Assembly: GCA_963789465.1 (NCBI GenBank)
Contig: CAWBLL010000016.1
Span: forward strand, 135,544 to 199,543
DNA: 64,000 bases
Direction of reading: 5' to 3'
From: an uncultured Bacteroidales bacterium
GTDB taxonomy: Bacteria; Bacteroidota; Bacteroidia; Bacteroidales; VadinHA17
Positions within the stretch are counted from its first letter, which is position 1; every line of letters begins with the position of its first letter. This document shows, one piece after another, positions 19,502-64,000 of this stretch. The notes under the pieces are model-generated. The model made no database searches, was not told the DNA's origin, and saw only the letters and a program-made list of their open reading frames with translations. The translations under genes and the position numbers were made by a program.

Positions 19502-22180
19502 TCATTTATTATCAGTTTCTATCTTATAATTATAAAGGAACCTGTCAGTACCGCCGACAATAAGGTGCCATCCGCTTTTATCCGATAATTTCCCGATTGA
19601 GAACATTGATGCTCCCCTGAGAGGAAATCCTTCAATGGTCTTACCCTGCTTGTCTATCAGGTATATGAGTTTCTTATTCACATCAAATATTCCAATCTTC
19701 CTGTTGGTACCCGAAAAAATAAAATTAATCGGCCCCCCAAGGTTTTCCGAATCAAAATCTCTTGAAAATATCTTTGCCCGATCATGGCTGTAAAGATACA
19801 ATACACCTTTGTCAATAAAAATATATTCACCAAATCCATCCCCGTTCACATCAAAAATGTCGAAGGAATGTTCAGGTGAAAACTTCCCGAGACTGAACTT
19901 CCGTACCGTGCCGTCGAAATAAATATGCTGTACGGTCCCGTCAGGCGCCGAACAAACAACAGACTGCTCAGATCCGGGTGTAAGGCGCATTGCAGACCCT
20001 TTTGCCCTCGTCACAGCCTGACTGAGATTAAGCCTTTTGTTTCCCCTGCGGTCAAGAAAATATATTGAATAATCATCAGAGGCTACAATATAATCCTTGC
20101 CGGACACTTTAAAATAATCTATCTCATGTTCAACCGTTCCGGCTGTTCTGAAAGGTTTCCAACCTTTTACCACACTCCCGGTCTTGTCATAGGAATAGAT
20201 CATCTTATCTTCACCAGCAATAAACAGCCTGTAATCAAGATTATTATCATAATCAAAAATCGCAAGGGAATTGGTTGCGGGTGATCTCAGCCTTACCGGA
20301 TAGCGCTCCACATAGTTGCCATTTCTGTCAAGAAGATGCAGGAAATCCTTACCTGAAAACAATAACTGATATTTGCCATTCCTGAAATAATCTATCATGT
20401 AAATATTGCCGGTTATCCTTTCATTGAGGGGGACTTTCCATAATACCCTCCCAGCGGCATTTATCAGATAGGTATTATTATTCAGATCCTGAATAAAAAT
20501 CTCCTTCGCTCCTGTTATATGATTAGTAAAAAAGAATGGTTTTATTGCTGCAACAGTATCGAGAAGAGTTTCCCATTCTGTGGTTGATTCCTCCCTTGCC
20601 TCCTCCTTGTACCTTAATGATAAGCTGTTATACACCATTCCGTTACTCGATGCCAGTTGATAGCCTGCTGCCTGCAATTTATTGAGAGAGCTTTTATTGG
20701 ATTTCAATACTTCAATAATATCCTCATTCAGGAATTGTGACAGGTAGTTGATGAGCCTGGAAGGAACACAGTAAAAGAAGTAACTCGCCCTGCTGGGCAG
20801 TGTATTTTCAAAATCGCGGTAGATGAGGTCATTCGCCAATGTCTTCTTAAGAAGATTATCATATAATAATCTGGAAACTGTAATATAAGAGCTGCCTGAA
20901 ATCATGTAGTTATCATCAAATGCGAAATATCTTTCCTCAATCCCCGGATCAAAGCCCGGTTTCACCATTCCGCTCAATCCTGCAAAATGGGTGTTGTAAA
21001 CAGGAAGTCTAACCTGATCATCAGGTTCAAAATAATCTATCTCCGGGTTTGGACCCAGTTCTTCAAGAAATATCTGTTCGGCCCTGTCCCTGTTGGACAG
21101 CTCATATACCACAAGATAATTTTTGGCTATCGGCTGGTTCTTGATATCTACAAGTGCCCTTGTAATTTCTTCTCCGGTATATTCCTTCAGTCGCTCAGCC
21201 AGATGGTTTGATTTTCCAAGACCTGAGGCATCCGGATGAACGATCTTATCCGGCCCTGGAAGAATAAAAGTCTCAAACAGGATTGTGGAGGATGGTAGAA
21301 TTTTATAGTTATTCAGCTCCTTCGGAGTCAAAAACTTGAATTTGTAAAGATAATCCGTGGAATCAGTGCTCTCCATGTACCCGCTGAGAACAAGTCCATT
21401 TTCATTTATATAGATATCACTCCCTGCTGTGCCTGCAAGTTTCGGTATCTTTGCCGCAAGGTTCTGCTTTCCTGATGAAAGGCATTTTCTGATGACTTCA
21501 GGAAGGTTTGAAAATACTATAAAGATCTTGTCAGCATTCTTTCCCGATGCCATATGAACCCGCGTAAAGCCAGGCATATCCCTTATGTCATTTGATTTTG
21601 TAATTTGAGCCACAGCTTTTTCCGCTTCAGCCATAGATGTGCTGCATAGCAATAAGCCCGACGTAAGAGAGAGATAAACAGTGTCTTTCTGATTATTCAC
21701 ATCGAAGGGAAGGCTGATAAAATCATTGGCTCCTGAACTGTTCTCTGTAATATTATTTATCCCTGTGGAATGCAGGATATCCTTTAAATGACGGCTCCTT
21801 ATGGCATCAGGCAGACTGACAATCAGAAGGGGCTTAAGCCTGCCTTCCTCATCAGGAGTGAATGAAATCAGAACAGTTCCGCCATCCAGCAGCTCAGTAT
21901 ATCCCGGTTTATTCAGCTGGTCGGCAAGAAACTGAAGCTTAATCTTAAAAGTTTCAATTTCCTTTATTTTCTCTACTTCTCCGAATAAACCCTTCCCTGT
22001 AGTAAGTGAATTGAGAAAACTCTGAAGATCTACAGTTTCAATAATGATACATGCTGACGGTGTAATCGCCTTGAAAGGATCTGTAAGCAATCGTTTTCTT
22101 CCCTGCTGGATATAATAACCCAGGATTGCCAGACTGATAAACAGGATTATAACAGAGAATATAGCTACCCTTTTTCCCAA
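19502..22180 (-). CDS. large membrane-anchored hypothetical protein with a repeat/propeller-like C-terminal half
   Basis: 892 aa, TTG start, N-terminal TM (VAIFSVIILFISLAILGYY). The C-terminal half has FG-GAP-like segments (FDVNGDGFGEYIFID, LAIFDYDNNLDYRLFIAG). Confidence 0.6.
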   Translation of the reverse strand: MGKRVAIFSVIILFISLAILGYYIQQGRKRLLTDPFKAITPSACIIIETVDLQSFLNSLTTGKGLFGEVEKIKEIETFKIKLQFLADQLNKPGYTELLDGGTVLISFTPDEEGRLKPLLIVSLPDAIRSRHLKDILHSTGINNITENSSGANDFISLPFDVNNQKDTVYLSLTSGLLLCSTSMAEAEKAVAQITKSNDIRDMPGFTRVHMASGKNADKIFIVFSNLPEVIRKCLSSGKQNLAAKIPKLAGTAGSDIYINENGLVLSGYMESTDSTDYLYKFKFLTPKELNNYKILPSSTILFETFILPGPDKIVHPDASGLGKSNHLAERLKEYTGEEITRALVDIKNQPIAKNYLVVYELSNRDRAEQIFLEELGPNPEIDYFEPDDQVRLPVYNTHFAGLSGMVKPGFDPGIEERYFAFDDNYMISGSSYITVSRLLYDNLLKKTLANDLIYRDFENTLPSRASYFFYCVPSRLINYLSQFLNEDIIEVLKSNKSSLNKLQAAGYQLASSNGMVYNSLSLRYKEEAREESTTEWETLLDTVAAIKPFFFTNHITGAKEIFIQDLNNNTYLINAAGRVLWKVPLNERITGNIYMIDYFRNGKYQLLFSGKDFLHLLDRNGNYVERYPVRLRSPATNSLAIFDYDNNLDYRLFIAGEDKMIYSYDKTGSVVKGWKPFRTAGTVEHEIDYFKVSGKDYIVASDDYSIYFLDRRGNKRLNLSQAVTRAKGSAMRLTPGSEQSVVCSAPDGTVQHIYFDGTVRKFSLGKFSPEHSFDIFDVNGDGFGEYIFIDKGVLYLYSHDRAKIFSRDFDSENLGGPINFIFSGTNRKIGIFDVNKKLIYLIDKQGKTIEGFPLRGASMFSIGKLSDKSGWHLIVGGTDRFLYNYKIETDNK

Positions 22181-22281: not shown

Positions 22282-23868
22282 TTAAGCCTCTTCCGTAACT
22301 TTCCATCCTATCGCCTCAGCCAGTCCATAAACCGGTTCCTTCAGGTCACCATAAAAAGTTACCCTGTGCCAGCCCCATTTGTCCCACATTGTGAAAAGCT
22401 TTTCAATATCTCCTATCGGCTCAGCACACAGCTTGGTTCTGCAAGCACGGTCATCCGGATCATTATCAACAGCTATTGCCTGGTGGAACAGTATCTCCTT
22501 CTTATCTTTATCGATCTCCAGAGTGGTGGTCATGTAATTTACCGGCAGTATTGACCTTACTGAAGCACCGCTCCTGTCTTCGGAATGGGTCATAATATGA
22601 AAAGGATTGACAGGCCCCTGTGGACCGAATGCTTTGTTTGAAGCCACACAATGTGAATAGATAATTTGTCGCCTTGAAGTATCCAGAACGGGATCTGAGA
22701 TATATCCGGGCCTGCCACCTGTCATCGTTGTAAAAGCAAGCATGGTGGCAGTTGACCTTATGTCGCATTCACATGCTCCAACAAGTCCCTCATTGTTCAA
22801 TTCATGGAAACCCAGACAGGGATAAGCATGAATATGCCCCCCATAAAAGCCTCCAAGGCAATTTATGGTAATTGCTCCGGCTTCATGATCCTTAAGTACC
22901 GATTTCATACCAAGATACATGGCTGCAGAGGTAAGCAGCGTTTCATCTGAAACTCCTGTTATAGCTACTGCAGTCTTTTTCCATCGTTCAACGATAATGG
23001 CAGATTCATCCTTATCTGCATTTTTCCAGGCGTTATTTACTTCAGCAAATGGAATATATTCGAGCGGTATGCCCATTAGTGGTTCCGCTGTTTCAGCTTT
23101 CTGATCCTTTACCGCGAGGATCCTGGATTTCGAAAGACGGTTGAGTGTCTCTTCAGGAGAAAGGGCTGTTATTGAATTTTCAGACGGAGAATAATTTCCG
23201 GCAGGCTGACAGGTGCTTAATCGTGTTTTTGTTACTGCCTCTGCAAATCCATTGGCTGTTCCGCCGTCCCGCATCAGTTTAAAACACGTCACTGCAGACA
23301 GAAGATCTTCAATACGGGAGGAAGCAACAAAACCTACATTCCCTGTTTTATTGCGAAGGAAGGCAGAAGTGTAAACAAGAAATCCTCCGCTCCCTCCAAA
23401 CTGATAATCAACATAGAGTACCGGTTTTCCTGTCTTTGCAACGCTCTGCACCACCTGGTTCCAGCAGTTCATCTGAAAAACGATATATCCGTCAATATTT
23501 TCCAGGCTATCCCGGGATAAGATCTTTTCTGCATCTTCAGGTCCCCTGGCCAGTCCCGGCAAAAATTCAAAATCCGGAAAATTCTTGGTAAGCGCCATGT
23601 TGAACCTGGTCATTGCAGGATTGAAATCAAATCCAATATTAGGCCAGTCAGGCTGACCCTGGACAGGAGCATGAAGTGAATAAAGAACACGGATCTTCAT
23701 ATTCCCCATCACTTTTCCCGAAAAGGATGATGAATTGAGAAATCCCATTGGTGCCAGGGCAGCACAGGCAGCACAGGCGGAGCATGAAGAGATAAAATTT
23801 CTTCTTGTAAAACAGTTCCCATTTCTCGATTTAAGATTGACGGAATAATCAGGGGTTATGGTTTTCAT
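22282..23868 (-). CDS. hypothetical protein with a twin-arginine-like signal; C-terminal part resembles the L-fucose/arabinose isomerase-like fold (tentative)
   Basis: 528 aa. TRRNFISSCSACAACAALAP at the N-terminus; the ...NCLGG...PCLGFHELNNEGLVGACECDIRSTATML pattern is isomerase-like. Confidence 0.4.
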   Translation of the reverse strand: MKTITPDYSVNLKSRNGNCFTRRNFISSCSACAACAALAPMGFLNSSSFSGKVMGNMKIRVLYSLHAPVQGQPDWPNIGFDFNPAMTRFNMALTKNFPDFEFLPGLARGPEDAEKILSRDSLENIDGYIVFQMNCWNQVVQSVAKTGKPVLYVDYQFGGSGGFLVYTSAFLRNKTGNVGFVASSRIEDLLSAVTCFKLMRDGGTANGFAEAVTKTRLSTCQPAGNYSPSENSITALSPEETLNRLSKSRILAVKDQKAETAEPLMGIPLEYIPFAEVNNAWKNADKDESAIIVERWKKTAVAITGVSDETLLTSAAMYLGMKSVLKDHEAGAITINCLGGFYGGHIHAYPCLGFHELNNEGLVGACECDIRSTATMLAFTTMTGGRPGYISDPVLDTSRRQIIYSHCVASNKAFGPQGPVNPFHIMTHSEDRSGASVRSILPVNYMTTTLEIDKDKKEILFHQAIAVDNDPDDRACRTKLCAEPIGDIEKLFTMWDKWGWHRVTFYGDLKEPVYGLAEAIGWKVTEEA

Positions 23869-49556: not shown

Positions 49557-49916
49557 ATGAAGAGAAAAATAATCCCATATAACCCTCATTTAAAAGATCT
49601 TGCAAAGGAGCTAAGAAGAAATATGACACTTTCTGAAGTATTATTATGGAAGGAACTTAGAAATAAAAATATGCTGGGTTATGATTTTGACAGGCAACGC
49701 CCGATAGGAAACTTTATAGTCGACTTTTATTGCAAAGATCTTGCCCTGGCTATTGAAATAGATGGCGACACACATATTTACAGATATGATTATGATGAAG
49801 AAAGACAAGAAGTTCTTGAAAAATCAGGGGTCAATTTCTTAAGATTTGAAGATATTGAAGTAAAAAAGAACATGATAAATGTCTTAAGGGTGATTGCGGA
49901 TTGGATTGAAAAAAAT
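49557..49916 (+). other. DUF559 (Vsr-like endonuclease fold) domain-coding portion of the long ORF
   Basis: About 120 aa match the usual stand-alone DUF559 protein length and motif order. No stop codon follows. Confidence 0.7.
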
Positions 49917-52751
49917 CAACCCACCCCTGACCCCTCCCAGGAGGGGAACCCTAAAGATGATAATCCGGCTAAAATGAATAAACCCACCCCTGACCACTCC
50001 AAGGAGGGGAACCCCAAAGATGATAATCCGGCTAAAATGATTAAACCCACCCCTGACCACTCCCAGGAGGGGAACCCTGAAGAAGGTAATCCGGCTAAAA
50101 TGATTAAACCCACCCCTGACCACTCCCAGAAGGGGAACCCTAAAGAAGATAATCCGGCTAAAATGATTAAACCCACCCCTGACCACTCCCAGGAGGGGAA
50201 CTCTAAAGAAGATAATCCGGTTAAAATGATTAAACCCACCCCTGACCACTCCCAGGAGGGGAACCCTAAAGAAGATAATCCGGCTAAAATGATTAAACCC
50301 ACCCCTGACCACTCCCAGGAGGGGAACCCTAAAGAAGATAATCCGGCTAAAATGATTAAACCCACCCCTGACCACTCCCAGAAGGGGAACCCTGAAGAAG
50401 GTAATCCGGCTAAAATGATTAAACCCACCCCTGACCACTCCCAGAAGGGGAACCCTAAAGATGATAATCCGGCTAAAATGATTAAACCCACCCCTGACCC
50501 CTCCCAGGAGGGGAACCCTAAAGAAGATAATCCGGCTAAAATGAATAAACCCACCCCTGACCACTCCCAGGAGGGGAACCCTAAAGAAGATAATCCGGCT
50601 AAAATGATTAAACCCACCCCTGACCACTCCCAGAAGGGGAACCCTAAAGAAGATAATCCGGCTAAAATGATTAAACCCACCCCTGACCACTCCCAGGAGG
50701 GGAACCCTGAAGAAGATAATCCGGCTAAAATGATTAAACCCACCCCTGACCACTCCCAGGAGGGGAACCCTAAAGAAGATAATCCGGCTAAAATGAATAA
50801 ACCCACCCCTGACCACTCCCAGGAGGGGAACCCTAAAGAAGATAATCTGTCGAAAATGAATAAACCAACAACTGCCCCATCCCAGGGAGACCACAGGGGA
50901 TATAAATATGTTTCTCCGACTATCATGGTCGGCAACGTCGCTCTTGGCGCTACCCACCCCATCCGTATCCAGTCGATGACAAATACAGACACTCTCGATA
51001 CTGATGCTTCTGTTGCCCAATGCATAAGAATCATTGAGGCAGGAGCTGATTTTGTGAGGCTTACAGCCCAGGGAGTCAGGGAGGCCGAGAACCTTGCCGC
51101 AATAAAGAAGGAACTGAGGAAAGCAGGATTCGACAATCCTCTGATTGCCGATATACATTTCAATCCAATGGCAGCTGAGACGGCTGCCCGGATCGTGGAA
51201 AAAGTAAGGATCAATCCGGGTAACTATGCCGATAAAAGAGCGACTTTCATAAACACTGACCTTACAGATGAGCAGTATAATGAAGAGCTTGAAAGAATAC
51301 ATGAAAAACTTCTGCCCCTGATAAATATCTGCAGGGAAAATAAAACTGTAATACGTATTGGAATAAACCATGGATCATTATCCGACCGTATAATGACCCG
51401 TTACGGAAATACCCCTTCGGGAATGGTTGTTTCCGCAATGGAATTCATAAAGATCTTCAGGAGCGAAAATTTTAATGATCTCGTGCTGTCGATGAAATCC
51501 TCAGATACCTCGGTCATGATAGAAGCGACCAGGCTTCTTGTTGGTGAATTGCAGGAAAGCGGATTGTCATATCCGCTTCATCTGGGTGTTACCGAAGCCG
51601 GGGAAGGAGAAGACGGAAGGATCCGCTCAGCAGCAGGGATAGGAGCCCTTCTTGCAGAAGGTATCGGCGATACGATCAGGATCTCCCTGTCGGAAGATCC
51701 GGAGTTTGAAATTCCGGTTGCAAAAAAACTAGCTGGCTATTATCCCAGGGATATAGCTGGCACAAACCAGGCAGGACCAATAGTTTATAAAACACCTGCA
51801 ATAAAACCGGATATCCTCAGGAGCGTTTCCGGTCCACTTGTAGTAATGAATATGACTTCCTATCCGGATTTTGACATAAAGGGCTACAGGGATGCCGGCT
51901 TCAATATAAATGAAAATTCAGGTGAGATCAAAAAAACTGACAGCTCGGCTGATTTCATTATCACCAGGGATGTACCCCGGATCTTGCCCGATGACGTTTC
52001 GATCATCCTTCCATTTAAAAAATGGTATGACCAGAAGGAAAATGAAAAGCTGTTTCCATTGTTCTCCCCTGAAACTTACCATGATGCTGCATTCAGGTCC
52101 CCCAAACTGAATTTTCTGCTTACCGGGTCACACTTTGACATCAGGTATCTCATGAAACCTGATCCTATGATAACGGTCATTGTATTTACCTTCAATCCCG
52201 ACACTGAAAAATATGCCCCTGACAAGTTTCTCAAAACCCTCGAAGAAAATAATCTTAACCACAATGTTCTCCTGAATCCGGTATTCCATGAAGCGGATTC
52301 CGACGATCTGAGGATAAAAGCGGCCGCACTTCTTGGCCGGTTCGTAATTGACAAAAGAGTAGCAGGGATATGTCTCCATAATATAGGCGAGATCAGCATG
52401 AAGGATGTAACGGCTATTTCATTTTCCATTCTCCAGTGCACAGAGACACGGATAACCAGAACATTGTATTTGTCGTGCCCAACATGCGGCCGCACAAAAT
52501 TCAATCTCCCGGAATCAGTCAGAAAAGTAAAGGAAGCTACAAGTCACCTCAAGGGTTTGAAAATTGCAGTTATGGGATGTATCGTTAACGGACCCGGCGA
52601 GATGGCAGGATCGGATTACGGATATGTAGGTGCTGCAGATGGCAAGGTACATATTTATCGCGGTACTGTTCCTGTACTGAAGAATATTCCGGAAAGTGAT
52701 GCGGCAGGTGAGTTGCTGAAGCTTATTGAACGGGACCTCTCAGGAAGCTGA
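49557..52751 (+). CDS. ispG: single open frame joining a DUF559 endonuclease-like domain, fifteen 21-aa repeats and IspG (HMBPP synthase)
   Basis: The 1064-aa ORF has no stop between its parts. N-terminus: LRRNMTLSEVLLWKELRN...FDRQRPIGNFIVDFYC...AIEIDGDTH...FLRFEDIEV (DUF559 pattern). Then the KPTPDHSQEGNPKEDNPAKMI repeats. Then PIRIQSMTNTDT...IADIHFNP...INPGN...CPTCGRT...GCIVNGPGE (IspG). Confidence 0.7.
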   Translation: MKRKIIPYNPHLKDLAKELRRNMTLSEVLLWKELRNKNMLGYDFDRQRPIGNFIVDFYCKDLALAIEIDGDTHIYRYDYDEERQEVLEKSGVNFLRFEDIEVKKNMINVLRVIADWIEKNQPTPDPSQEGNPKDDNPAKMNKPTPDHSKEGNPKDDNPAKMIKPTPDHSQEGNPEEGNPAKMIKPTPDHSQKGNPKEDNPAKMIKPTPDHSQEGNSKEDNPVKMIKPTPDHSQEGNPKEDNPAKMIKPTPDHSQEGNPKEDNPAKMIKPTPDHSQKGNPEEGNPAKMIKPTPDHSQKGNPKDDNPAKMIKPTPDPSQEGNPKEDNPAKMNKPTPDHSQEGNPKEDNPAKMIKPTPDHSQKGNPKEDNPAKMIKPTPDHSQEGNPEEDNPAKMIKPTPDHSQEGNPKEDNPAKMNKPTPDHSQEGNPKEDNLSKMNKPTTAPSQGDHRGYKYVSPTIMVGNVALGATHPIRIQSMTNTDTLDTDASVAQCIRIIEAGADFVRLTAQGVREAENLAAIKKELRKAGFDNPLIADIHFNPMAAETAARIVEKVRINPGNYADKRATFINTDLTDEQYNEELERIHEKLLPLINICRENKTVIRIGINHGSLSDRIMTRYGNTPSGMVVSAMEFIKIFRSENFNDLVLSMKSSDTSVMIEATRLLVGELQESGLSYPLHLGVTEAGEGEDGRIRSAAGIGALLAEGIGDTIRISLSEDPEFEIPVAKKLAGYYPRDIAGTNQAGPIVYKTPAIKPDILRSVSGPLVVMNMTSYPDFDIKGYRDAGFNINENSGEIKKTDSSADFIITRDVPRILPDDVSIILPFKKWYDQKENEKLFPLFSPETYHDAAFRSPKLNFLLTGSHFDIRYLMKPDPMITVIVFTFNPDTEKYAPDKFLKTLEENNLNHNVLLNPVFHEADSDDLRIKAAALLGRFVIDKRVAGICLHNIGEISMKDVTAISFSILQCTETRITRTLYLSCPTCGRTKFNLPESVRKVKEATSHLKGLKIAVMGCIVNGPGEMAGSDYGYVGAADGKVHIYRGTVPVLKNIPESDAAGELLKLIERDLSGS
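49917..50861 (+). repeat. 63-bp tandem repeat, 15 full units plus a degenerate 16th
   Basis: The unit is AAACCCACCCCTGACCACTCCCAGGAGGGGAACCCTAAAGAAGATAATCCGGCTAAAATGATT. 15 x 63 = 945 nt, counted unit by unit in the translation. Variants (H/P, E/K, D/E/G, I/N) are shuffled among the units. Confidence 0.95.
50856..52751 (+). CDS. ispG: IspG core from the last in-frame ATG of the repeat tract (candidate native start)
   Basis: MNKPTTAPSQGDHRGYKYVSPTIMVGNVALGATHPIRIQSMTN.... The distance from this Met to PIRIQSMT matches the usual IspG N-terminus. This is an alternative reading of the previous CDS. Confidence 0.5.
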   Translation: MNKPTTAPSQGDHRGYKYVSPTIMVGNVALGATHPIRIQSMTNTDTLDTDASVAQCIRIIEAGADFVRLTAQGVREAENLAAIKKELRKAGFDNPLIADIHFNPMAAETAARIVEKVRINPGNYADKRATFINTDLTDEQYNEELERIHEKLLPLINICRENKTVIRIGINHGSLSDRIMTRYGNTPSGMVVSAMEFIKIFRSENFNDLVLSMKSSDTSVMIEATRLLVGELQESGLSYPLHLGVTEAGEGEDGRIRSAAGIGALLAEGIGDTIRISLSEDPEFEIPVAKKLAGYYPRDIAGTNQAGPIVYKTPAIKPDILRSVSGPLVVMNMTSYPDFDIKGYRDAGFNINENSGEIKKTDSSADFIITRDVPRILPDDVSIILPFKKWYDQKENEKLFPLFSPETYHDAAFRSPKLNFLLTGSHFDIRYLMKPDPMITVIVFTFNPDTEKYAPDKFLKTLEENNLNHNVLLNPVFHEADSDDLRIKAAALLGRFVIDKRVAGICLHNIGEISMKDVTAISFSILQCTETRITRTLYLSCPTCGRTKFNLPESVRKVKEATSHLKGLKIAVMGCIVNGPGEMAGSDYGYVGAADGKVHIYRGTVPVLKNIPESDAAGELLKLIERDLSGS

Positions 52752-55149: not shown

Positions 55150-56517
55150 ATGAAGAGACTGATTTGTTATCTCGCTGTTTATATCTTTTTCTCCTGCTCC
55201 CTGTTACTGGCTCAGACATTTAGTGCCAGGGAGTACTGGAAAATGGAGAATGATTCCTCCTATTCTGTTCTGCTTCAGCATCAGAAAGCCGGAGTTTCCA
55301 TGTCACAACAGGAACAGAATTACCTGAATGATTACCAGGCCAGGCTCAGTGAATATTTTGCAAATATGCCGGATGAAGAAAAGGCGACATATTACAAAAA
55401 CCGGACGATGTGGTCGTCGCAACCGGGTACCGTTTATAATACTCCCCAAAGTCAGGAAGAAAACGTCTTTGCCGGGGAAAGAAGCAAGTATACGCAATAC
55501 ATGTTTTCCTCAGGATTCTTTGGATTTCTATATGGAGCCAGTGCCGCTTATATAATCGGTATCGATAATTCAGGTGCCATTTCCCTCCCCTTACTTACAG
55601 CCGGTGCTTCGACCCTGATCCCGATGCTCTCACTTAAGGATAAAAATATAACCTACAATTCACTCGCACTGGCAAATCACGGAAAGGCTGTGGGCGGCCT
55701 TCAGGGTGTTGCATCAGGATTTCTGATTACAGGTGATAATGCCGGAGATGGGAAATTTATACTGGGAATGGCAACCTTATCGAGTATAGGTCTTGGCAGG
55801 TTAGGGTATGTTCTCGGGCGTGATAAACCATGGTCAGAGGGAAGGGTCGCCCTATATACACATTACGGTTTGCTCATGCCTTTGGAAGGATTGGCAATAG
55901 ATGTTGCATTCGATGCAAGTAACACAAGAGTTCTGGCTGCTACATCACTGGTATTCGGAGCAGGAGGATATATTATTGCGGACCGTGTAGCAGACTGGAA
56001 TGATTTTACAAGAGGGGATGTCACTGCAACCTCAACACTTTCAACGATGAACGGATTATTAGGATTATTTATTTTGGTAGACTTAGCTGACAGATCAGAT
56101 TTGCCTTCTGCCAATATATTAATTCCTGCTGCAGGCGCTCTTGGGGGAACAATTGCAGGACATTTTTGGCTTAAAAATGCCAGGCTGACAAGCCAGCAGG
56201 GACGAAATACCGCTTTAGGCTCTTTTGGCGGTACTCTGGTTGGCCTCGGGCTGACTGCAATAGTAAGTCCCGAAACTGTTACACCATACTATATTGTGGG
56301 CTATGCAACAGGAATGGCAACCTTTGCAATATTGGTCAATCAATACAAACAAACCAATGGTATCGCTTCAAAAGATGATGGGAAGACAAATCGCTGGAAC
56401 GTAAATCTTATGCCACAAAATCTACTGATCAACAGAAAAATAGCAACTCTTGTAAATGCCAATCCTGGGAAACGCATAAATTTTCTGCCGGCTTTTTCTG
56501 CAACTCTGAATTTCTGA
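55150..56517 (+). CDS. hypothetical polytopic membrane protein
   Basis: 455 aa. Signal peptide, a ~100-aa soluble segment, then many Gly/Ala-rich TM helices. No family recognised. Confidence 0.55.
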   Translation: MKRLICYLAVYIFFSCSLLLAQTFSAREYWKMENDSSYSVLLQHQKAGVSMSQQEQNYLNDYQARLSEYFANMPDEEKATYYKNRTMWSSQPGTVYNTPQSQEENVFAGERSKYTQYMFSSGFFGFLYGASAAYIIGIDNSGAISLPLLTAGASTLIPMLSLKDKNITYNSLALANHGKAVGGLQGVASGFLITGDNAGDGKFILGMATLSSIGLGRLGYVLGRDKPWSEGRVALYTHYGLLMPLEGLAIDVAFDASNTRVLAATSLVFGAGGYIIADRVADWNDFTRGDVTATSTLSTMNGLLGLFILVDLADRSDLPSANILIPAAGALGGTIAGHFWLKNARLTSQQGRNTALGSFGGTLVGLGLTAIVSPETVTPYYIVGYATGMATFAILVNQYKQTNGIASKDDGKTNRWNVNLMPQNLLINRKIATLVNANPGKRINFLPAFSATLNF

Positions 56518-56665
56518 CATCAGTCTTCAGGCTTATCTGATTATTACCTTAATTGCCCTGATAAAAAATCTGGCATCAGACCGGTTCTTCATCCGGAATC
56601 GCATTCTATCATTCGATTTAACTCATTTTATGTCAGGGCTTAACAAACAAACAATAAAATTTTAA

Positions 56666-56673
56666 TACTTTTG
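56666..56673 (+). promoter_or_regulatory. candidate -7 promoter element (TAnnTTTG) for the PqqD cluster
   Basis: TACTTTTG lies 10 nt before the TTG at 56684 and 19 nt before the ATG at 56693. Confidence 0.4.
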
Positions 56674-56683
56674 AGGTTACAAT

Positions 56684-56980
56684 TTGAAATTCATGACCGG
56701 GTTGAAATCAGTACTTACACGTTCGCAATCAGTTGTTACCACCAAAACAGGTAATGAATATGTGCTTGTTCCCATTGCAAACAACATTGCCGATATGAAC
56801 AGTATGTACACTCTTAATGAGACAGGGGCTTTCATCTGGGAACATATTGACGGTAAAAAGGATGTTCAGGATATTATCAGTGAAATGATTTCAGAGTATG
56901 AAGTTGATTATGACACTGCATCAAATGATGTTTTCTCATTTATAGATGACATGAGGAAATATCTGGTAATTGATGAATAA
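56684..56980 (+). CDS. PqqD-family protein (RiPP recognition element-like)
   Basis: 98 aa (start TTG at 56684 or ATG at 56693). LNETGAFIWEHIDGKKDVQDIISEMISEYEVDYDTASNDVFSFIDDM is a typical PqqD pattern. Confidence 0.8.
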   Translation: MKFMTGLKSVLTRSQSVVTTKTGNEYVLVPIANNIADMNSMYTLNETGAFIWEHIDGKKDVQDIISEMISEYEVDYDTASNDVFSFIDDMRKYLVIDE

Positions 56981-57026
56981 TAAATGGATTGTTTAAAATA
57001 TTTTTTATTGCGGATATTTCTGAAAA

Positions 57027-57926
57027 ATGAGAAACTTTATTTTGAAAATAGCAGGTTACAGCATAGGTTTTGAGGCATCTGCCGGCGGACCTGACCTTGC
57101 CGTTGCTCCAAAATTTCTCAGAAATATCAGTCATAATTCACACTTTGATGTCCTTATAAAAGTCCATTCCGGACCTTATATCCTGCCCCCGGATGCCGAA
57201 CGGGTTTTCCATGCCCCATTTGTGGAGGAGAGATATGGGATCCTTATCCATAATAATCCCGATTTCTGGAGTGTATGGAAGCATAATTCCCTCCTCTTCA
57301 TAAAAACTATTTTTCCTCTTTCGGAATATCCCAAAAATGCAGTACTCAGATTTTCCGTCTCGGAAAAGGTATGGGACCTTTGGATGGAAACTGATAAACC
57401 CGAGACAGATCCTATTGAGTATCCTCTTGATGGCCTGATACTTTACTATCTCACTGTTATCAACAATGATATAATGATACATGCTTCCGGCGTAAATTAT
57501 AACGGAAAGGGATACCTCTTCAGCGGAGTCTCCGGGAAAGGAAAATCGACAATGGCCAGGCTCTGGGCAGACCACCAGGCCATCGTAATTCATGATGACA
57601 GACTCATAATCAGAAAATCAGGATATGGGTATATAATGTATAACACCCCCATTTATAATACTGATCAGCCTCTCAACTCAGAGCTCAGCAGGATCTTCAT
57701 TATTGAACATGGAAATGAAAACAGGCTGATCCGGCTTAAAGGGGCCTCTGCTGTCAGCCATGTGATGGCGAATTGTATTCAGCATACATGGGGACCTGCA
57801 ATAGTTTCAGTGCTGCTGGAATCCGTATCTGAAATGTGCAACTTAATTCCCGTTTACAGGCTTCTCTTCATGCCGGAAAAAAGTGTAATTGATAATATAC
57901 TAAAGTTAGATGAGCAATCCGGATAA
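57027..57926 (+). CDS. HPr-kinase-like (HprK C-terminal domain-like) P-loop protein
   Basis: 299 aa. MIHASGVNYNGKGYLFSGVSGKGKSTMA resembles the HprK P-loop context. Confidence 0.65.
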   Translation: MRNFILKIAGYSIGFEASAGGPDLAVAPKFLRNISHNSHFDVLIKVHSGPYILPPDAERVFHAPFVEERYGILIHNNPDFWSVWKHNSLLFIKTIFPLSEYPKNAVLRFSVSEKVWDLWMETDKPETDPIEYPLDGLILYYLTVINNDIMIHASGVNYNGKGYLFSGVSGKGKSTMARLWADHQAIVIHDDRLIIRKSGYGYIMYNTPIYNTDQPLNSELSRIFIIEHGNENRLIRLKGASAVSHVMANCIQHTWGPAIVSVLLESVSEMCNLIPVYRLLFMPEKSVIDNILKLDEQSG

Positions 57927-58357
57927 AAGGAAGATAGTTAAAGATACAGGACTGACTCTTCTCTCAGAAGGTAAAACGATCCGTATAAAAGCTCACGGCT
58001 ACAGCATGTATCCATGCATTAAACCAGGCTCCCTGGTACTTATTGAACCAATTAACCTGAAAGGGCCTCCGGTTCCGGGAGAGATCATCGCGATATCAAG
58101 AAAAGACGGCATGATAATCCATCGTCTTGAGAAAATACTTACAACAGGTAAGTGCCAAAAAGTACATTGCAAGAGGCGACAGCAACGCATTTGCAGACCC
58201 TCCCGTTACACTTGACAAGATTGCAGGAAGGATTGCAGGCGCTGAGACAACAGGAGAAAACCCTCTTCCGGCTGACATCAGGATCAATACAAGACCTTTC
58301 CATTTTATAAACAGACTAAGAGTTATCGGCTTGCACTTATGGAAGAAATTAAAGTAA
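57910..58357 (+). pseudogene. S24/S26-family peptidase, interrupted by an apparent 1-nt insertion in an A5 run (58157-58161)
   Basis: Fragment 1 has AHGYSMYPCIKPGSLVLIEP (Ser nucleophile motif). The +1 frame continues KYIARGDSNAFADPPVTLDKIAGRIAG (GDN-type motif). The span is 448 nt (3n+1). Confidence 0.7.
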
Positions 58358-60159
58358 GGATCATGCAGAATATCCGAAAAAAAACACGTCTGTTCCGGGA
58401 ATCCATCCTTCTGGTCTGGAAGAGTTCTCCGGTCTGGGCGACTGCAAATATCCTGATATCGGTTCTCAGAAGTTTTCTTCCACTGATCCTTATCTGGCTG
58501 TTAAAGGTTCTCATCGATGATATCAGCGCTGCAGCAGCAAATGGATCAGGAATTGTTTCAGGAAACCTTCTCCGTATGATCATAGCAGTTGTGACGGTAT
58601 ATTTTATTGATGAAGGGCTGTCTGACCTCAGCAATTTCATCAGGAAGAAGCAGGCACTTAAACTTGAAGTCTACATGTATGACCTTCTTCATATAAAGTC
58701 AGTGAAGCTTGATCTGATTAACTTTGAAAAGCCTGAATATTTTGATTGCCTGTCACGCGCCACAAGAGAAGCGCCCTGGCGACCCAATTCCATCCTGAAC
58801 AACCTTGTTGCCTTTCTTCGGGGACTCATCTCACTGCTTCTTATGGCCGGACTTATACTAACACTGAACTGGGCAATTGCAGTTGTTCTTCTTGTTGCCA
58901 ACATACCTGCTATATGGCTTCGGCTTCATTATGCCGGGATACTTTATAATTTTCAAAGAGAACAGACACCCGAGGCGCGGAAATCAGCATATTTCAACTG
59001 GCTGCTTACCGGAGAGAGGCCATCCAGAGAAATAAGGCTTTTCGGATTGGGTAACTATTTCATCAATCTTTTTAAAAAATCGTTTATAAAGCAAAAAGAG
59101 GATGAAATAGCAATTATCCGCAAAAGAACTGCTATTGAACTTGTTTCTGACCTTTTCAAGGCTTCTGCCTTTCTGGTCACATTATGGTATATCGCACAGA
59201 AAACTACCACAGGAAGCCTTTCCATCGGGCAGATGGCAATGTTCCTGCTTGCATTCAGACAGGGAATGATGTATATCAAGGATCTCTTCAGCTCGATGGC
59301 AGGACTTTATGAAGACAGCCTTTTCATTGAAGATACATTCGAGTTCCTCGAACTCGAGGAGAATATCAAAGCTGAAAGTCCGGTATCGGTGCCATCAACA
59401 CTACAGAGAAATATAGTTGTCGAAAATCTGTCTTTCACCTATCCGGGCAATAACCGGAAAACATTAAATAATATCTCGTTTGAAGTGGGGAAAGGAGAAG
59501 TTATTGCTCTTGTCGGGCCCAATGGAGCTGGAAAGAGTACACTGGCAAGGATTTTATGCAGGCTTTATGATCCGGATTCAGGTTCAGTAATTTATGACGG
59601 GCAGAATATAAAAAACATGAACCCCGATGAATACAGGAAATTCTTCTCTGTCGTTTTTCAGGATTTTATGCTTTACAACCTCAATGCAGGCGAGAATATC
59701 AGGATGGGCAATATCGATGAAGAAACCGGTAGCGACAAAATACGGTCCGCTGCAGTAAATGCCGGTATTGATGAGCTCATCTCCGGTCTTCCGGACGGAT
59801 ACGACACCCCTATAGGAAATCTGTTTGACAACAGCAGGGAACTGAGCTGGGGAGAATGGCAGAAGATAGCTATTGCCAGGGCTCTCTTCAGGGAGGCGCC
59901 TGTTCTAATTCTCGATGAACCATCAAGCTCCCTCGATGCCGATACGGAATATGAGATTTTTAGCCGGTTCAGGGAGATTGTCAAAGGGCGCACTTCAATA
60001 TTAATCAGTCACAGGTTTGTCAATGTGAGCCTCGCCGACAGGATCATCGTACTTGATAAGGGATCAGTGATCGAAACCGGGACACATGATAAACTGATGG
60101 ACAATGGCGGTTTATACAGCAAAATGTTCATGAAACAAAGCAGCCGCTTCAACAATTAG
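58339..60159 (+). CDS. ABC exporter, fused permease and ATPase
   Basis: 606 aa. Six-TM N-terminal half, then Walker A GPNGAGKST, LSWGEWQKIAIARA and ILDEPSS. Confidence 0.85.
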   Translation: MEEIKVRIMQNIRKKTRLFRESILLVWKSSPVWATANILISVLRSFLPLILIWLLKVLIDDISAAAANGSGIVSGNLLRMIIAVVTVYFIDEGLSDLSNFIRKKQALKLEVYMYDLLHIKSVKLDLINFEKPEYFDCLSRATREAPWRPNSILNNLVAFLRGLISLLLMAGLILTLNWAIAVVLLVANIPAIWLRLHYAGILYNFQREQTPEARKSAYFNWLLTGERPSREIRLFGLGNYFINLFKKSFIKQKEDEIAIIRKRTAIELVSDLFKASAFLVTLWYIAQKTTTGSLSIGQMAMFLLAFRQGMMYIKDLFSSMAGLYEDSLFIEDTFEFLELEENIKAESPVSVPSTLQRNIVVENLSFTYPGNNRKTLNNISFEVGKGEVIALVGPNGAGKSTLARILCRLYDPDSGSVIYDGQNIKNMNPDEYRKFFSVVFQDFMLYNLNAGENIRMGNIDEETGSDKIRSAAVNAGIDELISGLPDGYDTPIGNLFDNSRELSWGEWQKIAIARALFREAPVLILDEPSSSLDADTEYEIFSRFREIVKGRTSILISHRFVNVSLADRIIVLDKGSVIETGTHDKLMDNGGLYSKMFMKQSSRFNN

Positions 60160-60207
60160 CCTTTACCAGGAAGGAAATCATTCATTTGACTGAGGCAATT
60201 CCAGTTT

Positions 60208-60380
60208 AGGGGGTGTTGAAAAAATCTTTTTAACCGCGCTAAATTGGCCCAAATCACTCAACTTCAAAGCATTGATATTAATCCTGATAGCTATCAGAGC
60301 TTTGCGTCTCGATAGCTATCAGGATTTGCGGCAATTCTTTGTGAAATGTGCGGTTAATGGATTTTGACTTTTGAGACAGC
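60208..60380. repeat. MITE-like intergenic element (copy 2, inverted relative to copy 1)
   Basis: Its ends are GGGGGTGTTGAAAAAATCTTTTTAACCGCG and ...TGCGGTTAATGGATTTTGACTTTTGAGACAGCC. It has two GATAGCTATC palindromes. The 24-mer at 60348-60371 is the reverse complement of 38880-38903. Confidence 0.65.
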
Positions 60381-60517
60381 CTGGAGTCATGACAATGAAT
60401 CACTGATTATCTTCATTTTAATAGTAATTTTTTTGCAAAAAAGTTTTTTTGTTTAAAAATATTTTGTTTAATTTTATAGTGATGTTGCTAGTCAAATAGG
60501 TTTATCATTTAAGGAAG

Positions 60518-60727
60518 ATGAACAAGTTCAGAAAAGAGACTCTGAAAGTCCGGCTTTTAAAACTTGCTGAACTGAAGTGCACAGGGGCGCCTGCAGATCT
60601 GGCTTTAAGATTTGAAATCAGTGAGCGTCATGTCAAGAGAATTGTCAAGGAGATCCGGGATGACGGTACTGAGATTTGGTACAGTCCGACAAGGAGGTCA
60701 TATATTACTGGGGAAGAGTATCAATAG
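60518..60727 (+). CDS. small HTH-domain protein (YafY/DeoR N-terminal-like)
   Basis: 69 aa. LLKLAELKCTGAPADLALRFEISERHVKRIVKEIRDDG is a helix-turn-helix pattern. Confidence 0.55.
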   Translation: MNKFRKETLKVRLLKLAELKCTGAPADLALRFEISERHVKRIVKEIRDDGTEIWYSPTRRSYITGEEYQ

Positions 60728-60960
60728 TCAAAAAAAAATGTGATTTTTTGATTATTATGTCCCCGGCTCTTTTTAAAATTGTATTAGCAATGAGATATAT
60801 CCTGTTCTTCTCACTAAAATGAATATTATGACTTAGTGTTTTGAGATTTGAGGGGTTATGTTTACTCAGGGCTTCGTTTTTTCCAGGGCAAGTCTCGCTG
60901 CATTCCGTGCTAATGCGGGTTCTTGATGAACTGCCGGTCTCCTAGGCCGACGACCCCACT

Positions 60961-60996
60961 CCCCGGGAAATGATCCAACATTTTCCGGGGTTTTTT
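60961..60996 (+). terminator. intrinsic terminator
   Basis: CCCCGGGAAAT-GATCCAAC-ATTTTCCGGGG (11-nt arms with one mismatch) followed by TTTTTT. Confidence 0.65.
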
Positions 60997-61083
60997 ATGT
61001 CTGGACTAAAACCATTACATTATATGAAGCTGATTGGAATGGCAGGTGTCCCCTGAAAGTGATAAGAAATATATCAACAAGAA

Positions 61084-61284
61084 CTATTTTGCATTATTGA
61101 TTTTACGGATCTCCATATACATGGCCACTGCCCCGAGAAGACATATAAAAGTCATAAAAATAGTCAGAAAGAGATTCCTTCCAGAGGGGCTGAAAATGAG
61201 GATAAATGTGAACAGGAGAATTGAAATAGTGAGGTTAGCAGTGAGGAGTATCTTGTACAAAAGTAATTTGCTCATAAGGCTCAA
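61084..61284 (-). CDS. possible small two-TM hydrophobic protein
   Basis: 66-aa ORF (TTG at 61284, or ATG at 61274 giving MSKLLLYKILL...). It has two hydrophobic stretches. There is no family match or conservation evidence. Confidence 0.25.
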   Translation of the reverse strand: MSLMSKLLLYKILLTANLTISILLFTFILIFSPSGRNLFLTIFMTFICLLGAVAMYMEIRKINNAK

Positions 61285-61460
61285 TTTTTATCAGTAATAA
61301 TTCCGTTTTTTCACATTTTCCAGTATCATGATTCCTTGATCAGGGTTAGATGCCCGGTCTTTAATAATTTTCATCACAAAGGTAAAGAAAGGAGTTCTAA
61401 ATCGTACAATCTGATGTAGGATTATGTAATAATTATGAACCAGTAAGCCGGCCTGATTAC

Positions 61461-64000
61461 GGGCTGAAGCCCGGACTTAGAGGACCCTCCCCTGATCACT
61501 CTCTGCCCGGAGACCTGTCATACTGATCGCCGCTCCGCCGGCCAGGGCAGTGGTCCCAGCATGTAAGCAGCTCTGCCTGACAAACGCCGGGCTTCAGCCC
61601 GGTGTTGACGATCGCCAGCATGGGTTGGGCTTTAGCCCGGAACAAGCATGGGATGATGACAGTCCCTGGTGGATCCCATCTCCACCATGGCACTCCTTGA
61701 AGAGAGTCACTGCCTGGGGGTTAGGATGTCCGGGCTGAAGCCCGGACTTAGAAGACTCTCCCCATATCACTCTCTGTCCGGATAGCTGTCATACTGATCG
61801 CCGCTCCGCCGGCCAGGGCAGTGGTCCCAGCATGTAAGCAGCTCTGCCTGACAAACGCCGGGCTTCAGCCCGGTGTTGACGATCGCCAGCATGGGTTGGG
61901 CTTTAGCCCGGAACAAGCATGGGATGATGACAGTCCCTGGTGGATCCCATCTCCACCACGGCACTCCTTGAAGAGAGTCACTGCCTGGGGGTTAGTATAT
62001 CCGGGCTGAAGCCCGGACTTAGAGGACCCTCCCCTGATCAATCTCTGCCCGGATAGCTGTCATACTGATCGCCGCTCCGCCGGCCAGGGCAGTGGTCCCA
62101 GCATGTAAGCAGCTCTGCCTGACAAACGCCGGGCTTCAGCCCGGTGTTGACGATCGCCAGCATGGGTTGGGCTTTAGCCCGGAACAAGCATGGGATGATG
62201 ACAGTCCCTGGTGGATCCCATCTCCACCACGGCACTCCTTGAAGAGAGTCACTGCCAGGGGGTTAGTATGTCCGGGCTGAAGCCCGGACTTAGAGGATCC
62301 TCTCCTGATCAATCTCTGCCCGGAGAGCTGTCATACTGATCGCCGCTCCGCCGGCCAGGGCAGTGGTCCCAGCATGTAAGCAGCTCTGCCTGACAAACGC
62401 CGGGCTTCAGCCCGGTGTTGACGATCGCCAGCATGGGTTGGGCTTTAGCCCGGAACAAGCATGGGATGATGACAGTCCCTGGTGGATCCCATCTCCACCA
62501 TGGCACTCCTTGAAGAGAGTCACTGCCAGGGGGTTAGTATGTCCGGGCTGAAGCCCGGACTTAGAGGACTCTCCCCATATCACTCTCTGCCCGGAGAGCT
62601 GTCATACTGATCGCCGCTCCGCCGGCCAGGGCAGTGGTCCCAGCATGTAAGCAGCTCTGCCTGACAAACGCCGGGCTTCAGCCCGGTGTTGACGATCGCC
62701 AGCATGGGTTGGGCTTTAGCCCGGAACAAGCATGGGATGATGACAGTCCCTGGTGGATCCCATCTCCACCATGGCACTCCTTGAAGAGAGTCACTGCCAG
62801 GGGGTTAGTATGTCCGGGCTGAAGCCCGGACTTAGAGGACTCTCCCCATATCACTCTCTGCCCGGAGAGCTGTCATACTGATCGCCGCTCCGCCGGCCAG
62901 GGCAGTGGTCCCAGCATGTAAGCAGCTCTGCCTGACAAACGCCGGGCTTCAGCCCGGTGTTGACGATCGCCAGCATGGGTTGGGCTTTAGCCCGGAACAA
63001 GCATGGGATGATGACAGTCCCTGGTGGATCCCATCTCCACCACGGCACTCCTTGAAGAGAGTCACTGCCAGGGGGTTAGTATGTCCGGGCTGAAGCCCGG
63101 ACTTAGAGGACCCTCCCCATGATCACTCTCTGCCCGTAGAGCTGTCATACTGATCGCCGCTCCGCCGGCCAGGGCAGTGGTCTCAGCATGTAAGCAGCTC
63201 TGCCTGACAAACGCCGGGCTTCAGCCCGGTGTTGACGATCGCCAGCATGGGTTGGGCTTTAGCCCGGAACAAGCATGGGATGATGACAGTCCCTGGTGGA
63301 TCCCATCTCCACCATGGCACTCCTTGAAGAGAGTCACTGCCAGGGGGTTAGTATGTCCGGGCTGAAGCCCGGACTTAGAGGACCCTCCCCATATCACTCT
63401 CTGCCCGTAGAGCTGTCATACTGATCGCCGCTCCGCCGGCCAGGGCAGTGGTCCCAGCATGTAAGCAGCTCTGCCTGACAAACGCCGGGCTTCAGCCCGG
63501 TGTTGACGATCGCCCGCATGGGTTGGGCTTTAGCCCGGAACAAGCATGGGATGATGACAGTCCCTGGTGGATCCCATCTCCACCATGGCACTCCTTGAAG
63601 AGAGTCACTGCCAGGGGGTTAGTATGTCCGGGCTGAAGCCGGACTTAGAGGACCCTCCCCATATCACTCTCTGCCCGTAGAGCTGTCATACTGATCGCCG
63701 CTCCGCCGGCCAGGGCAGTGGTCCCAGCATGTAAGCAGCTCTGCCTGACAAACGCCGGGCTTCAGCCCGGTGTTGACGATCGCCAGCATGGGTTGGGCTT
63801 TAGCCCGGAACAAGCATGGGATGATGACAGTCCCTGGTGGATCCCATCTCCACCACGGCACTCCTTAAAGAGAGTCACTGCCAGGGGGTTAGTATGTCCG
63901 GGCTGAAGCCCGGACTTAGAGGACTCTCCCCATATCACTCTCTGTCCGGATAGCTGTCATATTGATCGCCGCTCCGCCGGCCAGGGCAGTGGTCCCAGCA
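61461..64000. repeat. tandem array with a ~271-bp period, 9 full units plus a partial 10th, truncated by the window end
   Basis: The GGGCTGAAGCCCGG landmark occurs at 61461, 61732, 62003, 62274, 62545, 62816, 63087, 63359, 63630 and 63900. Units are near-identical outside one short variable segment. Confidence 0.97.

Follow-up and report, generated by a model that had tools for sequence, protein, structure and literature searches.

The DNA described here is a stretch of 64,000 nucleotides (the window) from an uncultured Bacteroidales bacterium of the VadinHA17 lineage (GenBank assembly GCA_963789465.1, contig CAWBLL010000016.1, positions 135,544 to 199,543 of the forward strand). Its right-hand part carries a cassette of four tightly packed genes for a PqqD-family protein, an HPr-kinase-like protein, an S26 peptidase and an ABC exporter. 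An earlier note, made from the sequence alone, had read these genes as a pathway for a peptide made by ribosomes and modified after translation (RiPP). In the present analysis the cassette is assigned, as the probable reading, to the pathways that make linear polyphosphorylated peptides (LPP).

Locus organization

The cassette and the putative promoter element in front of it consist of the following features; the window sequence ends 3.8 kb past the last of them.

56666..56673, plus strand: putative Bacteroidota-type -7 promoter element TACTTTTG, 20 nt before the PqqD ATG
56693..56980, plus strand: cassette gene 1, PqqD-family RiPP recognition element (RRE), 95 aa from ATG 56693 (start in the list of open reading frames (ORFs): TTG 56684)
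57027..57926, plus strand: cassette gene 2, HPr-kinase-like P-loop protein, 299 aa
57910..58357, plus strand: cassette gene 3, S26 signal-peptidase-I homolog, in two pieces (57910-58215 and 58127-58357)
58339..60159, plus strand: cassette gene 4, MsbA-like half-size ABC exporter, 606 aa

The description in the earlier note, four co-directional genes behind a TAnnTTTG motif with ORF overlaps of 17 nt (57910-57926, kinase/peptidase) and 19 nt (58339-58357, peptidase/ABC exporter), was verified in all coordinates, those of TACTTTTG included. The 19-nt overlap vanishes when the ABC exporter is started at Met9 (58363), which may be the true start because the proteins of relatives align only from residue 9-12 onward.

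Conservation of the cassette

Kinase genes of this type were found at 69 loci in species-representative genomes, nearly all of them from uncultured Bacteroidales (related loci are cited by number, L001 and so on). The cassette occurs in about 60 Bacteroidales species and adjoins rnr; the usual gene order is ispG, rnr (on the opposite strand), PqqD, kinase, peptidase and ABC exporter. PqqD is present in all 64 related loci compared, the peptidase in 59 of 66 (L003, L010, L032 and L063 are among those without it), and 52 of 60 have the exporter downstream in the same orientation. All cassette genes are under purifying selection, with 0.09-0.24 for non-synonymous differences (pN) versus 0.55-0.84 for synonymous differences (pS). 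The four genes, which the RiPP proposal had expected to find together in other genomes, are thus conserved as a unit across Bacteroidales.

In 28 of 52 relatives the ABC exporter gene is followed by a gene for a nucleotidyltransferase of the NTP_transf_5 family (2.8e-47), of which only a remnant is left in L012. Because about half of the relatives also carry this gene, the four-gene form seen in the window is a reduced form of the cassette.

The TAnnTTTG motif occurs 49 times in the window against an expectation of 49.2; it is not enriched, and therefore the motif alone is no proof of a promoter. In 52 of 60 related loci, however, it lies about 26 nt 5' of the PqqD ATG, and because this spacing is kept, TACTTTTG is probably a real Bacteroidota promoter element. 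As a promoter it would set the true PqqD start at ATG 56693. The PqqD proteins of relatives align from residue 4 of the window protein.

Properties of the gene products

The first gene encodes a stand-alone PqqD domain (Pfam PqqD, 1.2e-19), which upholds the PqqD-like assignment of the earlier note. Its top NCBIfam match, lasso_PqqD_Bac (1.2e-12), is under the family cut-off, and the match to the ScmD model of the same collection (7e-10) is far under its cut-off. Sequence matches in the Protein Data Bank are 9x90_B (5e-6), TbiB1 (5v1u), 9x8z_B and TfuB1; the closest solved relatives of the window protein are RREs from lasso peptide pathways and from the LPP study. An Asn (in TLNETG) and an Asp (in SNDVF) of the window protein are matched in the alignment by an Asn/Asp pair of 9x8z_B with a spacing of 37 residues. 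We infer that 9x8z_B is the LPP recognition element LppB and that the pair carries the LppB numbering; the window protein would then retain the residues D70 and N33, by which LppB holds Y-16 and P-13 of the leader (PMC13381572).

The second gene product matches Pfam Hpr_kinase_C weakly (0.02) and the NCBIfam models HprK_rel_B (4e-7) and ScmC (3e-6), in each case over the P-loop region and far under the cut-offs. Against the HprK/P equivalog TIGR00679 it reaches 16.7 bits at a cut-off of 240, short of a full-length match; judged by these scores, it resembles HprK/P in the nucleotide-binding core only. An AlphaFold2 model (pLDDT 78.8) gave phosphoenolpyruvate carboxykinase (PEPCK) and HPrK/P as top Foldseek matches (1knx, 3tqf, 1kkl; E 3e-6 to 1e-3), and over 72 aa the protein shares 36% identity with BsfK. 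BsfK is a lasso-peptide kinase of proven activity, the phosphorylation by which is sped up by BsfB1 (PMC10368454). The HPr-kinase-like assignment, weak by sequence and under all cut-offs, is upheld because of the fold matches and the identity to BsfK, and the gene product is a predicted peptide Ser/Thr kinase. Both domain assignments on which the RiPP proposal depended, PqqD and HprK, therefore stand. The protein database holds 1073 homologs of the kinase. PF27840 is annotated on all of the best 120 of these 1073; no mention of PF27840 was found in the literature searched.

The third gene is not a single ORF in the window, as its pieces 57910-58215 and 58127-58357 differ in frame. In an alignment with L001, L002, L007 and L008 the window carries one extra base near 58150. 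A 151-nt short-read contig of run X4 (a soil metagenome of the same study) is exact over 58095-58246 except that T58153 is absent, by which the reading frame, and with it ...ILTTGKAKKYIARGDSN..., is restored. The two halves share one frame in 54 of 55 relatives, and both have pN of about 0.1 versus pS above 0.65. From the frame kept in relatives, the independent contig and the purifying selection it follows that the frameshift at 58153 arose either through misassembly or as a very recent variant.

The read-through peptidase (148 aa) matches the archaeal-type signal peptidase I model TIGR02228 at 5.3e-13 (49.1 bits, cut-off 51.85) and the SipW model at 1.3e-6. Thus the S26 part of the earlier S24/S26 call held, but not the single ORF, which is split by the extra T58153. 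The catalytic boxes shared with SipW, Sec11 and archaeal type I signal peptidases (S26B) are readable in the sequence as SMYP (Ser of SMxP), IIHR (His of HR) and ARGDSN (GDxN). The window protein differs from these enzymes in that it is only 148 aa long, has no N-terminal membrane anchor and lies within a RiPP-type cassette; a DNA-binding domain is also missing from its sequence. It is probably a cytoplasmic leader peptidase and not a secretory enzyme.

The fourth gene encodes an ABC exporter, as previously assigned, with the Pfam domains ABC_tran (2.4e-33) and ABC_membrane (6e-10) and no C39 peptidase domain. Its top NCBIfam match is MsbA_lipidA (2e-83), under the cut-off. An independent 2.2-kb Logan contig that begins at 58155 encodes a protein identical to the window exporter.

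Precursor peptides in related genomes

The earlier statement that no precursor is visible near the cassette was borne out for the entire 64-kb window. The absence is explained by the relatives, which encode a conserved precursor at another locus. The family was recognized in the lineages that keep it within the cluster. In three cultured Marinilabiliales, Alkaliflexus imshenetskii, Alkalitalea saponilacus and Natronoflexus pectinivorans, an ORF of 76-79 aa lies between PqqD and the HprK-like gene in a compact RRE, precursor, kinase arrangement (L064 9191-10669; L066 9011-10573; L067) with no adjacent peptidase, pump or nucleotidyltransferase. In L046, L047, L052 and L074 a precursor ORF of 52-55 aa lies directly 3' of the nucleotidyltransferase gene. 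The precursors of both groups share the motif Y-x-x-P-x-[I/L]-x4-[L/I]-D-x-S-I-S-L together with an [S/N]PF motif.

Members of the family are conserved peptides, about 57 aa long, that combine the leader YxxPx[I/V]xxxxLDxSIS with the core LVMMT..PPNP..SPFxSPFxDKPF. A profile search found 762 members in the database, all of them unnamed and without a Pfam domain. The consensus of 74 distinct precursors is YxRPxVxRIELDNSIS-LVMMTxAPPNPPPR...SPFxSPFxDKPFx; the residue preceding LD varies among precursors, those of the close clade included. Mean identity is 0.67 in the core versus 0.68 in the leader, i.e. the core is as conserved as the leader.

Genomes were scanned with the exact pattern LDxSISLxMMT, which misses variants; the scan gave 102 stretches, of which about 90 are true precursor ORFs. 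In fourteen cassette-bearing metagenome-assembled genomes (MAGs) a precursor lies apart from the cassette, in most cases on a different contig. In one of the 14 it lies 25 kb downstream of the cassette on chromosome OY764960.1, and in another about 65 kb from it on contig CAWHSA010000006.1. The genome from which the window derives would likewise hold a precursor.

Of 140 fetched loci, some of them overlapping, 117 have the precursor gene directly behind the gene for a protein of about 910 aa with Beta_helix and Por_Secre_tail domains. The precursor gene is often followed by genes for a PorG-like protein, a giant protein with CHU_C, the type-B signal of the type IX secretion system (T9SS), and PorP/SprF, and polysaccharide-synthesis genes adjoin. 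This setting suggests that the peptide is connected with the cell surface or with type IX secretion. The arrangement of beta-helix T9SS cargo and precursor was seen in L079, L084, L113-L118 and about 110 further loci.

In relatives, spacers of 500 nt between PqqD and HprK contain small ORFs, which were rejected as precursors because they are inserted GxxExxY/PD-(D/E)XK or DUF559 genes. The large adjacent ORFs 19502-22180 (892 aa) and 22282-23868 (528 aa) of the window, both on the minus strand and without a Pfam match at 1e-5, are unrelated to the precursor-linked beta-helix protein.

Comparison with known systems

LPP were defined in a study with experiments in Paenibacillus alginolyticus DSM5050, the cluster of which has the order lppA-K-B-S-D-N (Nat Commun 2026; PMC13381572). 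The LPP core genes encode a signal peptidase I, an RRE, a kinase resembling HprK, an NTP transferase and a transporter resembling MsbA, and the precursors carry YxxPxVLxHQxIxFETxxS with Tyr at -16 and Pro at -13. LppS cuts the leader off after T-1, and LppK adds several phosphates to Ser3. The clusters often lie within capsular polysaccharide loci and were reported as restricted to Bacillota (all PMC13381572).

The window has the discrete RRE, the HprK-like kinase, the SipW-like signal peptidase I and the MsbA-like ABC pump of this set, and no cyclase; its kinase is placed beside that of LPP through the fold, P-loop and BsfK matches. An LppN-type NTP transferase is absent from the window and present in 28 of 52 relatives. 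An in-cluster precursor with YxxPx[V] is likewise absent from the window, whereas relatives encode a YxxPx[I/V] precursor either inside the cluster or in trans. With cleavage after S-I-S, the Tyr and Pro of the relatives' leader would fall at -16 and -13 as in LPP. Both systems are found near polysaccharide biosynthesis genes.

The differences are several. LPP belong to Bacillota, and the present system to another phylum with a diderm host. The Bacteroidales precursor is usually unlinked and placed in a T9SS cargo operon, and it is single and has a conserved core, whereas LPP clusters contain one to three precursors with variable C-termini. The remainder of the leader reads LDxSIS instead of VLxHQxIxFET, the Ser3 of LPP is absent from the Bacteroidales core, and the gene order differs. 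What is new here is the other phylum, the precursor that is usually encoded in trans within a T9SS cargo operon, the conserved core, and the frequent loss of the nucleotidyltransferase. The earlier suggestion that the system is uncharacterised did not survive the comparison, as the same gene set defines the experimentally shown LPP family. A paper on RiPP mining in Bacteroidales does not mention the cassette (PMC10352776).

The phosphorylated lasso peptide clusters (paeninodin, pseudomycoidin and bsf of Bradymonas sediminis) have in common with the present system a B1-type RRE together with an HprK-like kinase, NTP transferase and ABC exporter, and their YxxPxL leader is alike. HprK-like and NTP-transferase genes are tailoring genes in paeninodin-type clusters (PMC8498205), and the lasso kinase works on the linear precursor with the assistance of the RRE (PMC8498205, PMC10368454). 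That HprK-like kinases phosphorylate the C-terminal Ser of some lasso-peptide precursors, as stated in the earlier note, holds as a precedent, but this is not the sole site, and published precedents include the internal Ser3. In the present system the macrolactam cyclase and the transglutaminase-type B2 protease are missing, with an S26 serine peptidase standing in for B2 as it does in LPP. Neither an Asn-synthetase-like cyclase nor a transglutaminase-like B2 was found among the large ORFs of the window or the flanking ORFs read in relatives, and radical-SAM and YcaO genes were not found in the window, in agreement with the earlier note. The cores of the relatives (LVMMT..PPNP) do not follow the lasso core rule of Gly, Ala, Ser or Cys at position 1 and Asp or Glu at positions 7-9: they start with Leu or Val and have no Asp or Glu at 7-9, and therefore a lasso ring is impossible.

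The HPr-rel-A system (TIGR04352/TIGR04355) and the SynChlorMet system (ScmC/ScmD) of NCBIfam likewise pair an HprK-like P-loop protein with a small PqqD-family protein. In the TIGRFAM descriptions these cassettes carry radical-SAM/SPASM or other partners. Such partners are absent here, and the window proteins score far under the respective cut-offs.

Proposed pathway and alternatives

The cassette is likely to represent the LPP RiPP pathway in a Bacteroidales form, the substrate of which would be the conserved peptide of some 57 aa, encoded outside the window and reached in trans. A RiPP-type, non-lasso system for peptide phosphorylation, trimming and export, as proposed in the earlier note, is supported by the domains, the folds, the conserved unit and the in-cluster precursors of relatives; the function is assigned by homology, and so are the individual biochemical steps, the cleavage site and the phosphorylation site. 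The PqqD protein would bind the YxxPx[I/V] leader of the trans-encoded precursor, and the HprK-like kinase, assisted by the RRE, would phosphorylate a Ser or Thr of the core. Because the core has no Ser3, Thr5 of LVMMT and the Ser of the SPF motifs are the candidate phosphosites. The anchor-less SipW-like S26 peptidase would then cut off the leader, most likely after S-I-S. This cut is favored because Tyr and Pro then fall at -16 and -13, their positions in LppA, and small residues at -3 and -1; the Y-17 spacing of lasso type (PMC10368454) would shift it to after S-I-S-L. The MsbA-like ABC pump would move the linear product over the inner membrane to the periplasm. An NTP_transf_5 enzyme, the gene for which is absent from the window, may further decorate the phosphate in those relatives, about half of the total, that encode it.

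Several observations weigh against the assignment to LPP. The likeness of the kinase to HprK spans about 70 residues and is far under the family cut-offs. Neither the window, read in six frames, nor the sequence up to 10 kb from the cassette in close relatives yielded a precursor when searched with hidden Markov models and regular expressions, and the 64-kb window has no homolog of the nucleotidyltransferase. With the strict motif, no precursor was recovered from the MAGs of L001 and L002, the closest relatives, or from the complete close-clade chromosomes OY970276.1 and OY970346.1, and the pairings of cassette and precursor within one MAG may include binning errors. The peptide itself is unlike the LPP in that its core is conserved (0.67 mean identity) and not variable; the core LVMMT... 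is without Ser at position 3, the LPP phosphosite, and its last residue is not constant (G 24, S 22, N 22).

The missing precursor and nucleotidyltransferase are the main basis of the best of the alternatives, in which the cassette is orphaned: the sub-lineage of the window, L001 and L002 would have lost both, and the remaining genes would be decaying or recruited to another substrate. The nucleotidyltransferase remnant of L012, the peptidase-free loci and the frameshift in the window assembly fit such decay. Yet all four genes, both peptidase halves included, are under strong purifying selection in comparison with L001 and L002, the frameshift is absent from the independent read contig, and at least three MAGs without an adjacent nucleotidyltransferase (L010, L027, L058) hold a precursor. 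The scan behind the missing matches, moreover, demanded the exact motif. Orphaning is accordingly regarded as unlikely.

It is considerably less probable still that RRE, kinase and pump are the accessory half or remnant of a lasso peptide pathway with cyclase and B2 elsewhere. The RRE is nearest to lasso RREs, the kinase resembles BsfK, the leader motif YxxPx[L/I/V] is of lasso type, and kinase and nucleotidyltransferase are known from paeninodin-type clusters; this kinship is countered by the lack of cyclase and B2 in all ORFs read, by a core that cannot form the ring, and by the S26 peptidase that replaces B2 as it does in LPP. A chance adjacency of a regulatory HprK-type kinase, a LexA/S24-like or secretory signal peptidase and an MsbA lipid flippase, as could be read from the MsbA models among the best ABC matches, the S24 and HprK Pfam matches under cut-off and the housekeeping neighbors rnr and ispG, is hardly credible given the tight conserved order of overlapping or near-abutting ORFs in about 60 species, the stand-alone RRE as first gene, the peptidase without anchor or DNA-binding domain, the precursor inside the cluster in several lineages and a gene set that is exactly that of LPP.

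Neighboring features

One further gene adjoins the cassette in many relatives.

60518..60727, plus strand: winged-helix (HTH_11-like) protein, 69 aa, weak matches to helix-turn-helix (HTH) models, conserved neighbor downstream of the cassette

This gene stands 3' of the ABC exporter or nucleotidyltransferase gene in 31 related loci, with up to 90% identity. It was rejected as a precursor, being an HTH-type protein without a YxxP leader, and is a putative member of the cassette at most. Farther downstream, 61087-61287 on the minus strand encodes a 66-aa ORF with two hydrophobic stretches that is conserved in L001 (81%) and L002 (51%) only. A tandem array from 61460 to 64000 runs off the end of the window; it has a unit of 271 bp in 9.4 copies with 97% matches, a G+C content of about 60% versus about 43% elsewhere, and many short hairpins of the GGGCTGAAGCCC type. 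Rfam gave no family match in 56400-64000, which covers the cassette and the array.

On the upstream side, a predicted membrane protein of 455 aa without a family match (55150-56517) lies between rnr and the cassette. Apart from the window, only L016 and L038 were seen to have this insertion; in the other loci the gap between rnr and PqqD is about 70 nt. Genes for GxxExxY/PD-(D/E)XK proteins (about 129 aa), DUF559 proteins and 23S_rRNA_IVP four-helix proteins are recurrent insertions in the spacers of the cassette and of the precursor operon. Such mobile-looking insertions were found in L005, L006, L008, L012, L020, L037, L038, L047, L056, L079 and L113. In the window, the ORF 49557-52751 (1064 aa) joins a DUF559 endonuclease-like domain, a repeat region and IspG/GcpE. 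The repeats are fifteen in-frame 63-bp units at 49918-50866 (PTPDHSQEGNPKEDNPAKMIK), and the IspG of relatives aligns only with the last ~580 residues of the ORF.

Biological implications

The assignment extends the LPP class from Bacillota into environmental Bacteroidales, in about 60 species. With maturation genes and precursor split between distant loci, genome mining based on clusters would miss the precursor. The three cultured Marinilabiliales with the compact version of RRE, precursor and kinase are open to direct study, and the role of an LPP phosphopeptide can be probed by way of the conserved core and the constant position within a T9SS cargo operon. One possibility, put forward tentatively and held to be rather doubtful, is that the mature product is a conserved housekeeping phospho(glyco)peptide tied to the Bacteroidales cell surface and not a variable antibiotic. 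If so, the cassette of the window would act in trans to mature a peptide linked to the surface or to secretion, and such a peptide may serve, e.g., as a glycan primer or anchor, or as a factor for particular T9SS cargos.

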